From: a virus
Lineage: Duplodnaviria > Heunggongvirae > Uroviricota > Caudoviricetes
Virus record (IMG/VR): IMGVR_UViG_2879770953_000002
Coordinates: 1-11,672 of that record
Reading direction: 5' to 3' (one strand)
DNA length: 11,672 nucleotides
Positions 2,207 through 4,241 of this stretch are shown in pieces. Position 1 is the first letter of the stretch. Each line of letters opens with the position of its first letter. The notes under the pieces were generated by a model. It was given only the letters and a program-made list of their open reading frames with translations. It made no database searches and was not told the origin of the DNA. A program made the position numbers and the translations under genes.

Positions 2207-2978
2207 TTACCCCGCTTTCTTATGGGGCATGCATGGGACACTTTCAGATAGTCTTCTGTTAAGAAGTTCTATCTGTTCGTGATTGTTGTCTTTCATCCAT
2301 GCTCCGTAAACATTGAATACCATTTGTGCGTTTGTGTGGCCCATCTGGCTTGCGATAAAACTAGGATTAGCTCCTGCGGCAAGTGACCAGCATGCATAGG
2401 TATGCCTGGATTGATACGATTTTCTGTGTCTCAGACCTGCGCGTTTTAAGATACTTGTCCATGACTCCCTGATGGAGTCAACCTTATAGTGCGGTCCGGA
2501 AAACTGCCGCTGTTTTATTACCTGAGGACTAAAAACAAAAGTGCATTTATGCACAGTACTTCTCCCATATTCCCTCTGCTTTACCTCTACAGAATGCTGT
2601 TTTCCAAGCATGGTCATTTCCGCTTGGCTTTTAAGAGCATCAATAGCTGGTTGAACTAGATGAATCGTTCTTCCGGTACCAGCATCAGTTTTTGGTGGAG
2701 TGAATTCGCCTAGTTTTGTATAATTCCGGCGGATGGTTATAGTCCTCGCTTTAAGGTCTATATCTTCCCAGGCCAGTGATACCAGCTCCCCGTGACGAAT
2801 ACCCGTGTATACAGCGATAATCCACAGGTTTTTTGTTTGTTGATGACGGCAAGCCTCAATAAAACGAATAAATTCGTCACGGGTGAGGGGATCTGGTTCT
2901 ATCTTGGACTTTTTTAATGGTGTCAGACCGTTAAATGGATTTCCTGATGTATAACCATTATCTGTTGCAAATTGAAAC
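2207..2978 (-). pseudogene. int: phage tyrosine integrase, 5'-truncated by IS600 (catalytic domain retained)
   Basis: Minus-strand ORF with a tyrosine-recombinase catalytic domain (..LTRDEFIRFIEACR.. GIRHGELVSLAWEDIDL.. HTYACWSLAAGANPSFIASQMGHTNAQMVFNVYGAWM). Only about 256 integrase residues remain; the arm-binding and core-binding N-terminal domains are absent. The first 9 codons of the track ORF (to 3004) are read from the IS600 left end. Confidence 0.85.
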
Positions 2979-3042
2979 TGAGGTAGCCTGAGTTTAACGG
3001 ACACTCCTTCCTGAAATAGAATGGCATCAGAAGGAGCTAATA

Positions 3043-3345
3043 ATGAGCAGAAAAACCCAACGTTACTCTAAAGAGTTCAAAGCCGAAGCTGTCAGAACGG
3101 TTCTTGAAAATCAACTTTCGATCAGTGAAGGCGCTTCCCGATTATCTCTTCCTGAAGGCACTTTAGGACAATGGGTTACCGCCGCCAGAAAAGGGCTCGG
3201 TACTCCTGGTTCCCGCACGGTGGCTGAACTGGAATCTGAAATTCTGCAACTGCGTAAGGCGTTAAATGAAGCTCGCCTTGAGCGAGATATATTAAAAAAA
3301 GCAACAGCGTATTTTGCACAGGAGTCGCTGAAAAATACGCGTTAA
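3043..3345 (+). CDS. IS600 OrfA (HTH transposase N-terminal protein)
   Basis: 100-aa ORF MSRKTQRYSKEFKAEAVRTVLENQLSISEGASRLSLPEGTLGQWV.. with a leucine-zipper-like C-terminus; AGGAG 7 nt upstream of the ATG. Confidence 0.9.
   Translation: MSRKTQRYSKEFKAEAVRTVLENQLSISEGASRLSLPEGTLGQWVTAARKGLGTPGSRTVAELESEILQLRKALNEARLERDILKKATAYFAQESLKNTR
3294..3301 (+). other. programmed -1 ribosomal frameshift site (A AAA AAA G) for the IS600 OrfAB transposase
   Basis: A7G heptamer in the orfA frame (TTA AAA AAA GCA). The -1 frame is open from 3282 and continues ..KKSNSVFCTGVAEKYALIEQWRQQFPIEAMCQVFGVS.. into orfB. This is the standard IS3-family arrangement. Confidence 0.7.
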
Positions 3346-3380
3346 TCGAACAATGGCGACAACAATTTCCCATTGAAGCG

Positions 3381-4199
3381 ATGTGTCAGGTATTTGGTGT
3401 ATCCAGGAGCGGTTATTACAACTGGGTACAGCATGAACCCTCAGACAGAAAACAAAGTGATGAGCGGCTAAAACTGGAGATTAAGGTGGCACATATCCGC
3501 ACTCGCGAAACATATGGAACCCGGCGGCTCCAGACGGAGCTGGCAGAGAATGGCATCATCGTTGGTCGTGACCGACTGGCACGTCTTCGTAAGGAGCTGA
3601 GGCTACGCTGTAAGCAGAAACGCAAGTTCAGAGCGACTACGAACCCGAACCACAATCTGCCAGTTGCGCCAAATCTGCTGAACCAGACGTTCGCTCCTAC
3701 AGCACCAAATCAGGTCTGGGTGGCGGACCTGACGTATGTTGCCACACAGGAGGGATGGTTGTACCTCGCTGGCATCAAAGATGTTTATACGTGTGAAATT
3801 GTCGGCTACGCCATGGGAGAGCGCATGACAAAAGAGCTGACAGGTAAAGCCCTGTTTATGGCGCTCAGGAGCCAGCGCCCACCTGCCGGGCTAATCCACC
3901 ACTCTGATCGAGGTTCACAGTACTGCGCATACGATTACCGGGTCATACAGGAGCAGTTTGGTCTGAAAACATCAATGTCGCGTAAAGGTAACTGTTACGA
4001 CAACGCTCCGATGGAAAGCTTCTGGGGAACGCTGAAAAATGAGAGCCTGAGCCACTATCGTTTTAATAACCGGGATGAAGCCATCTCAGTAATACGGGAA
4101 TACATTGAGATTTTCTACAATCGTCAGCGTCGTCACTCTCGTCTGGGGAATATCTCCCCGGCAGCCTTCAGGGAAAAATATCATCAGATGGCTGCTTAA
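3381..4199 (+). CDS. IS600 OrfB transposase catalytic domain (expressed as OrfAB fusion by frameshifting)
   Basis: 272-aa ORF from the track with IS3-family DDE-domain sequence (..WVADLTYVATQEGWLYLAGIKDVYTCEIVGY.. HHSDRGSQYCA.. NCYDNAPMESFWGTLK..). Confidence 0.9.
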   Translation: MCQVFGVSRSGYYNWVQHEPSDRKQSDERLKLEIKVAHIRTRETYGTRRLQTELAENGIIVGRDRLARLRKELRLRCKQKRKFRATTNPNHNLPVAPNLLNQTFAPTAPNQVWVADLTYVATQEGWLYLAGIKDVYTCEIVGYAMGERMTKELTGKALFMALRSQRPPAGLIHHSDRGSQYCAYDYRVIQEQFGLKTSMSRKGNCYDNAPMESFWGTLKNESLSHYRFNNRDEAISVIREYIEIFYNRQRRHSRLGNISPAAFREKYHQMAA

Positions 4200-4241
4200 A
4201 AAAAGAACAAATGGTAGTGTCCGCTATTGCCAGTACACCTC

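Follow-up and report, generated by a model that had tools for sequence, protein, structure and literature searches.

IS600 at the joint of a truncated integrase gene and a truncated side tail fibre gene in an ipaHe-bearing prophage remnant of Shigella flexneri

The chromosomal gene mlrA (yehV) is a classic lambdoid integration site and is often occupied by truncated prophages, also in O157 strains (PMC8309913). In Shigella flexneri, the ipaH islands I-V are phage remnants as well, which were characterised earlier and are conserved among isolates (PMC4226921). Herein we describe a stretch of 11,672 nucleotides (the window; IMG/VR record IMGVR_UViG_2879770953_000002), where a complete copy of the insertion sequence (IS) IS600 lies between a truncated integrase gene (int') and a truncated side tail fibre gene (stf') in mlrA, together with an intact gene for the type III secretion effector IpaHe. 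The S. flexneri chromosome CP026098.1 (locus L019) matches the whole window at 100% identity, and the open reading frame of int' bears the database names 'putative integrase [Shigella flexneri 5a str. M90T / 5 str. 8401]'. Our results revealed that the window holds a 10.1-kb remnant of an ipaHe-bearing lambdoid prophage of about 46-50 kb in mlrA of S. flexneri, and that the int'-IS600-stf' joint was very probably produced by a deletion of some kind.

Among the described phages of this site, the Shiga toxin (Stx) phages VT1-Sakai, JLK-2012, YYZ-2008 and BP-4795 have integrase DNA 94-96% identical to the remnant over the retained part. However, those phages are complete, with a size of 55-58 kb, a full-length int and stx or nle cargo, whereas the remnant keeps integrase residues 173-428 and carries ipaHe. 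Another relative is the prophage of the enteroinvasive Escherichia coli (EIEC) strain CFSAN029787, which resembles the remnant in its integration site, its attachment (att) core, its right-end module (98.9% identity) and its int region (96.6%), but which has no IS600, in which lom is followed by the second tail fibre gene (fibre2) without an stf-tfa pair in between, and whose ipaHe is annotated as frameshifted. The ipaH islands I-V are like our locus in that a chromosomal ipaH lies in a decayed, IS-riddled prophage, and the locus belongs to these known islands. As for the mechanism, Shigella genomes are recognised to decay partly through deletions between homologous IS copies (PMC7373316), and IS600 ranks among the two most abundant IS elements of S. 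flexneri (PMC4226921). For example, a deletion of the type III secretion system region that arose spontaneously on pINV has been recovered, each of its ends being an IS600 copy (PMC5629016), and an IS600-mediated deletion has been proposed for the loss of the pINV tra region (23 kb) (PMC7283534). In such pINV deletions between two IS600 copies both parental copies were seen beforehand, whereas in the chromosomal case only the product remains. Moreover in enterohaemorrhagic E. coli, IEE-dependent deletions of up to >40 kb arise beside IS629, a member of the IS3 family (PMC9943667); in those deletions, however, the IS is excised and the repair goes via microhomology, while here IS600 is complete and retained. 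In the literature searched, no paper describing this particular IS600 joint was found. The island type has already been named and the mechanism is textbook, and the locus falls within known kinds.

Boundaries and flanks of IS600

The IS600 of the window (2979-4242, plus strand, 1264 bp) is complete and nearly identical to annotated IS600, with 99.68% identity over 1265 bp to the annotated copy of E. coli 96_1414B. It has orfA with an HTH_Tnp_1 domain at 3043-3345 and orfB with an rve domain at 3381-4199, and an A7G slippery site is found at 3294, the RefSeq homologue being annotated with 'programmed frameshift'. The terminal inverted repeats begin with TGAGGT, the left end reading TGAGGTAGCC... 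and the right end ...GTACACCTCA. These ends are fixed because three other IS copies with target duplications define them: the IS600 of E. coli 96_1414B, at a site beyond xis, has GAT on both sides; the IS600 in molR has GTA on both sides, the two flanks being divided between two joints in inverted strains; and the IS629 of the window itself serves as an internal control with CGC at 621-623 and again at 1934-1936, where locus L001 is continuous across the site with an overlap of 3-4 bp. The last base of IS600 is thus 4242, and the sequence-only reading, which had placed it at 4241, was one base short.

With the boundaries so defined, IS600 is flanked by AAC (2976-2978) on the left and GCC (4243-4245) on the right, without a 3-bp target duplication, and that reading's claim of unduplicated flanks therefore survives the re-examination of the boundaries. 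Written in letters, with a slash at the junction, the left joint is GCAAATTGAAAC/TGAGGTAGCC and the right joint is GTACACCTCA/GCCAGGGATG. Because the flanks are AAC and GCC while the controls carry 3-bp duplications, a simple insertion is excluded; moreover some 40 kb separate the two flanks in the intact EIEC prophage. An insertion of IS600 into an older deletion joint was considered too and is rejected, as it would leave a target duplication. The AAC/IS600/GCC joint is found in at least 8 independent S. flexneri assemblies, closed chromosomes among them. One might still suppose that nothing was deleted, and that IS600 either entered between naturally adjacent genes or was misplaced by an assembly error over a repeated IS. 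What speaks for this is the general fact that IS copies confuse assemblers, but it is refuted by the missing target duplication, by the truncation of both genes exactly at the IS ends and by the distance between the two sites in intact relatives, and an assembly error is ruled out because the identical joint recurs in all those assemblies.

On the left side of the element, int' (2207-2978, minus strand) encodes residues 173-428 of a 428-amino-acid tyrosine integrase of the VT1-Sakai type. It keeps the PF00589 catalytic domain (E = 2.3e-18) and is without the N-terminal arm-binding part, the breakpoint having been mapped on the full-length gene of STEC308; the 171-172 lost residues bear PF12167 in relatives, and int' does not qualify as a functional integrase. 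Wherever this integrase gene is uninterrupted it adjoins mlrA, as do the full-length genes 99.9% identical to int' in 6 E. coli genomes, and the uninterrupted gene reads ...CAAATTGAAAC/ATTCCAGC at the IS600 site (...GAAAC/ATTCC).

On the right side, stf' (4243-5979, plus strand) is a lambdoid side tail fibre gene without codons 1-130, where PF03406 and PF21446 are the only domains detected. It begins at residue 131 of an 813-amino-acid homologue, so that the cut lies at about 16% of the gene, directly past the PF08400 N-terminal domain. The segment is 97.8% identical to the stf following lom in a lambdoid prophage of EIEC RMDEC465, whose uninterrupted gene reads ...GAAGAAGTCA/GCCAGGG at this place (...GTCA/GCCAGG). 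As for the features of the Stf type, the PF03406 and PF21446 repeats and the downstream tfa are kept, while PF08400 is deleted here but present in that homologue. When the phage collection was searched with stf'-tfa, P2-type H genes matched in part, at 84-88%, and no comparator emerged. It had been proposed that IS600 separates the catalytic half of an integrase from the middle of a side tail fibre gene; the former is right, while the cut in stf is near the start of the gene rather than in its middle. At 4240-4245, IS600 ends with TCA, and the uninterrupted stf has these three bases before GCC as well (...GAAGTCA/GCC...), an identity that is probably due to chance (about 1 in 64).

Attachment sites and the intact comparator

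The 20-bp att core CACGCGCGTAACGTGACAGG is located at 2149-2168 in mlrA (attL) and occurs again at window coordinate 12262 (attR), 590 bp past the window end and before btsS, and the same core bounds the intact EIEC prophage as a 21-bp repeat. The chromosomal flanks of the remnant are yehW-yohO-mlrA on one side and btsS-btsR on the other, in the order of the E. coli comparators. Judged as a lambdoid prophage of mlrA (yehV), the locus thus has the att repeats and the collinear ends but lacks the full gene set, which makes it a remnant.

To measure what is missing, the locus was compared with the prophage of EIEC O96:H19 CFSAN029787 (NZ_CP011416.1), an apparently complete lambdoid prophage of 46.3 kb in mlrA which carries ipaHe. 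Its left part consists of int, xis, early genes, replication genes, Q, four tRNAs, lysis genes, terminase, head genes, tail genes, J and lom, and its right part after lom consists of fibre2, DUF4376, ipaHe, methyltransferase, tfa', dinI and attR. Window positions 1934-2978 align to its left end with 96.6% identity, and positions 6848-12421 in window coordinates align to its right end with 98.9% identity, the match going on through attR into btsS. Between the two, the prophage has an interior of 40,062 bp to which nothing in the S. flexneri remnant corresponds; the int breakpoint and the end of lom lie 39.7 kb apart. When the lom-stf spacer and the 390 bp that stf has lost are added, the loss is about 40.2 kb, assuming an ancestor with the lom-stf-tfa arrangement of RMDEC465. 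The xis, immunity, replication, lysis, head and tail genes are all absent between int' and stf'.

The arrangement on both sides of IS600 is in agreement with this comparison. The leftward int' and the rightward stf' have exactly the orientations that an internal deletion leaves, and the order stf'-tfa-fibre2-DUF4376-ipaH agrees with the lambdoid prophage of EIEC RMDEC465, where the genes follow as J-lom-stf-tfa-fibre2-DUF4376-ipaH-dinI-attR. The comparison with an intact relative, as the sequence-only reading had suggested, therefore supports a deletion: int and stf are far apart in CFSAN029787, with about 40 kb between the breakpoints and no natural adjacency seen, and the claim that an IS600-associated deletion removed nearly the whole prophage is supported by the size of the unmatched interior with both att cores and flanks in place. 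That reading was too narrow in leaving only the integrase stub, the tail fibre block and the effector cargo; these are present indeed, but the remnant also has tfa, the second fibre gene, DUF4376, the methyltransferase gene, tfa' and dinI. Since int is truncated and xis is gone, the remnant is no longer able to excise or to lyse its host, while both att cores and the effector cargo are kept and the cargo is fixed in the chromosome.

STEC308 was also considered as the intact comparator, its integrase gene being 99.9% identical, but it was rejected because its prophage is an 18.5-kb remnant with a different right end. At this mlrA locus (L032, 1129-19882), a truncated replication gene runs into tail sheath and tail tube genes and no IS is annotated there; this is a separate, IS-free internal deletion at the same attachment site.

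Possible routes from an intact prophage to the joint

As the route to the joint, recombination between two direct IS600 copies is probably to be preferred over an adjacent deletion driven from one copy, though both would fit the sequence. Along the preferred route, one IS600 copy would have entered int with a duplication of AAC, a second copy would have entered stf in the same orientation with a duplication of GCC, and homologous recombination of these two direct repeats would then have excised an interior of about 40 kb, a stretch that begins at integrase codon 172, ends at stf codon 130 and comprises xis, J, lom and the genes for the early phase, replication, lysis, head and tail. What remains would be one hybrid IS600, flanked on the left as the first copy had been and on the right as the second. 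Directly seen are the unmatched flanks, the two breakpoints, an att site at each end, an intact relative with collinear ends and the recombination of this IS600 copy with others, while the intermediate with two copies is a step that we infer.

The recombination of this copy is documented in several genomes. In one assembly (GCA_903995765.1), the joints are molR...GTA/IS600/GCC-stf' and int'-AAC/IS600/GTA-molR; from this reciprocal exchange of flanks at molR it follows that this IS600 copy recombines with others by inversion. A second S. flexneri strain has the same int'-AAC/IS600/GTA joint with the same gene order, and a third one has yebV/rsmF-ACA/IS600/GCC-stf'. The inversion joints carry the locus labels L014, L043 and L023 (one assembly), L021 and L028, and L018 (yebV/rsmF).

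The same deletion of about 40 kb could have come from a single IS600, which inserted in int or stf and whose transposase then drove an intramolecular adjacent deletion. Such a route, which we hold to be possible but rather unlikely, gives an identical end product, namely an intact IS of which one flank is original and the other new. Within this very island, deletions that start from a fixed IS end and vary in extent are indeed seen, though with IS1, and large deletions beside IS3-family elements have been reported (PMC9943667). On the other hand, the IEE-linked IS629 deletions go with excision of the IS while IS600 is intact here, and homologous exchange is directly documented at this copy. 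Moreover, IS600 belongs to the copy-out-paste-in IS3 family, for which adjacent deletion is less typical. Classic adjacent deletions are typical of IS1 and of replicative elements, and the so-called adjacent deletions of the IS3 family, for example that of IS150 at rbs, are usually a new insertion nearby followed by recombination. An excision-coupled deletion of the IEE type was rejected as a further candidate, as the IS is lost in such events and a complete IS600 is retained at this joint.

It is also conceivable that int' and stf' never belonged to one prophage, or that the interior was moved elsewhere, the two fragments having been brought together by successive inversions or translocations between different prophages (those of mlrA, zinT and pdxJ/acpS), mediated by IS600 or by the ipaH modules. 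In fact rearrangements are frequent here: IS600 inversions link stf' to molR or yebV/rsmF, the ipaH modules of mlrA and zinT have been exchanged, and the left and right ends of the remnant best match different extant prophages. Nevertheless we consider this explanation very improbable. The genomes of the window type keep the chromosomal flanks and both att cores in the order of the E. coli comparators; the stf' segment at 4243-5395 belongs to the lambdoid type, with 97.8% identity to the stf after lom, and is unlike the myovirus-type remnant at zinT; at least two events would be needed where one suffices; and neither complementary joints nor N-terminal fragments were found in the collections searched.

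The complementary joints were defined as ...CACCTCA-AAC-ATTCCAGC, from IS600 to the 5' part of int, and ...GAAGTCA-GCC-TGAGGTAG, from the 5' part of stf to IS600, or as k-mers GTACACCTCA/AACATTCCAGC and GAAGAAGTCAGCC/TGAGGTAGCC. Queries were 93-bp chimeras against the E. coli genomes and exact 26-29-mers against species-representative genomes and metagenomes. The 5,426 complete E. coli genomes yielded neither joint, nor did the species-representative genomes or the JGI metagenomes. Likewise in a set of 5.8 billion proteins, Shigella assemblies included, no matching N-terminal fragments of int or stf were present, the searches for the int N-terminal fragment and for the stf fragment (...KKSA*) giving only unrelated fragments that were frameshifted or at contig ends. 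The absence of these joints fits a loss of the interior rather than its relocation, because a moved interior should leave such joints behind.

Several points weigh against a deletion from one prophage by two IS600 copies. The collections searched at the DNA level hold almost no Shigella, and the negative joint searches are thus weak for the genomes that matter. No genome was found in which IS600 occupies either site alone, be it AAC in int or GCC in stf. Moreover, the integrase gene is closest to the remnants of the STEC308 type (99.9%), whereas the right end shares 98.9% identity with the EIEC prophage and no more than 88-96% with STEC308; the EIEC prophage in mlrA is without the stf-tfa pair; and three copies of the fibre/ipaH module exist in S. 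flexneri and recombine with each other. In addition, the match of TCA described above makes the crossover at the right joint ambiguous by 3 bp, and it favours neither of the two deletion routes. The origin of both ends from one prophage is therefore parsimonious rather than proven.

As far as its meaning is concerned, the locus shows cleanly, and in a way that can be dated, how ipaHe, a type III effector gene carried by a phage, became a fixed chromosomal gene: a single deletion bounded by an IS took away the excision and lytic functions, while EIEC still harbours a relative that appears complete. The knowledge of IS elements or of prophage decay is not changed by this case. The joint and its derivatives, namely the IS600 inversions and the nested IS1 deletions described below, can be used as lineage markers, and they are also a caution for the assembly and comparison of Shigella genomes.

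Gene content, later decay and parallel cases

The window begins in the chromosomal flank with yohO (1-108, minus strand), which was aligned to the annotated yohO of E. coli 96_1414B. It is followed by mlrA in two parts, both on the minus strand: the 3' part at 168-623, 98.4% identical to the annotated mlrA of L001, and the 5' part at 1934-2186, which bears the MerR_1 domain and holds the attL core. Between these parts lies a 1310-bp IS3-family element of the IS629/IS1203 type (624-1933, minus strand), whose O157 homologues are annotated as IS1203 family. In fact mlrA bears three lesions: the prophage, IS629 and, at about 313-316, an insertion of 4 bp (GCGA) in comparison with E. coli; because this insertion shifts the frame of the 3' part, mlrA was inactivated independently of the prophage and of IS629.

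Downstream of stf', the tail fibre assembly gene tfa (5982-6527, plus strand; PF02413, E = 8e-27) has the same position as in L002, and the second tail fibre gene (6551-7837, plus strand; PF08400) encodes 428 amino acids. The latter is truncated by a frameshift, owing to a 1-bp deletion in a G run (7741-7744), and its homologues in EIEC and in other S. flexneri encode 470-471 amino acids. Then come the DUF4376 gene of the tail-fibre/cargo module (7916-8539, plus strand; PF14301), in the gene order of EIEC prophages, the gene ipaH (8719-10362, minus strand), the gene of a class I S-adenosylmethionine-dependent methyltransferase (10678-11346, minus strand), recognised by Pfam methyltransferase domains, and a fragment of a tail fibre assembly gene, tfa' (11403-11672, plus strand), which is in agreement with the gene order in L012 and L019. 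The methyltransferase protein occurs in thousands of prophages and is commonly cargo at the right end of lambdoid prophages. The product of ipaH, an intact type III secretion effector E3 ligase of 547 amino acids, is named IpaHe [Shigella flexneri] in the database; with PF12468 and leucine-rich repeat hits (LRR_TTSS) followed by a PF14496 NEL domain (E = 6e-77), it belongs to the NEL ligases of the IpaH family. While the 547 codons are intact in the window, the gene is annotated as frameshifted in EIEC prophages (L011, 23170-24811; L033, 3537-5179).

A second copy of the DUF4376-ipaH-methyltransferase-tfa' module (7646-11672 of the window), 100% identical, is located by zinT about 203 kb away (L013, L020), and the genome thus has two identical ipaHe genes. 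The zinT copy stands at the end of a myovirus-type prophage remnant and is cut at 7646, with IS1 adjoining in some strains. In one strain (L016, L017), the modules of mlrA and zinT have swapped partners.

The remnant has decayed further in some strains. Many S. flexneri strains have an IS1 at 5578/5579 inside stf', and in some of the strains (L036, L038, L039, L041, L044) the stretch 2945-5578 or 2563-5578 has been removed with the IS1 end fixed and a left boundary at 2944 or 2562. These nested deletions take away what was left of int', IS600 in full and the larger part of stf'; they are IS1 adjacent deletions which erase the IS600 joint.

Joints of a similar kind are observed at other places. 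In a second ipaH island of the same S. flexneri genomes, next to pdxJ/acpS (L035, L037, L040, at about 2100-5300), an IS600 without target duplication (GTT on one side and TTT on the other) links a C-terminally cut PF00589 integrase fragment to tail/baseplate genes (DUF2612), and downstream of DUF2612 there follow a fibre gene, tfa, fibre2, DUF4376 and a 608-amino-acid IpaH. In Shigella sonnei, draft contigs (L045-L047, positions 1-20) end near mlrA with ...GCCAGTACACCTCA/GTTGCCAATG, so that nucleotide 342 of the same mlrA-prophage integrase gene borders directly on the right end of IS600; with its different site and opposite orientation, this joint is independent of that of S. flexneri. It is tempting to speculate that the IS600-bounded gutting of ipaH prophages is recurrent and selected, not a one-off accident, although we regard this as unlikely at present. 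If it were true, the recurrence would mean a repeated 'grounding' of effector prophages, by which killing and excision are lost while the cargo and the att sites stay, and such grounding could be a pathoadaptation step of Shigella, possibly aided by a preference of IS600 for these phage genes.

Beyond the window end, L019 continues as tfa'-dinI-IS4-btsS-btsR with attR before btsS. The IS4 (12422-13846 in window coordinates) is 1425 bp long and lies between attR and btsS; with a 12-bp overlap with the EIEC sequence, it looks like a simple insertion.

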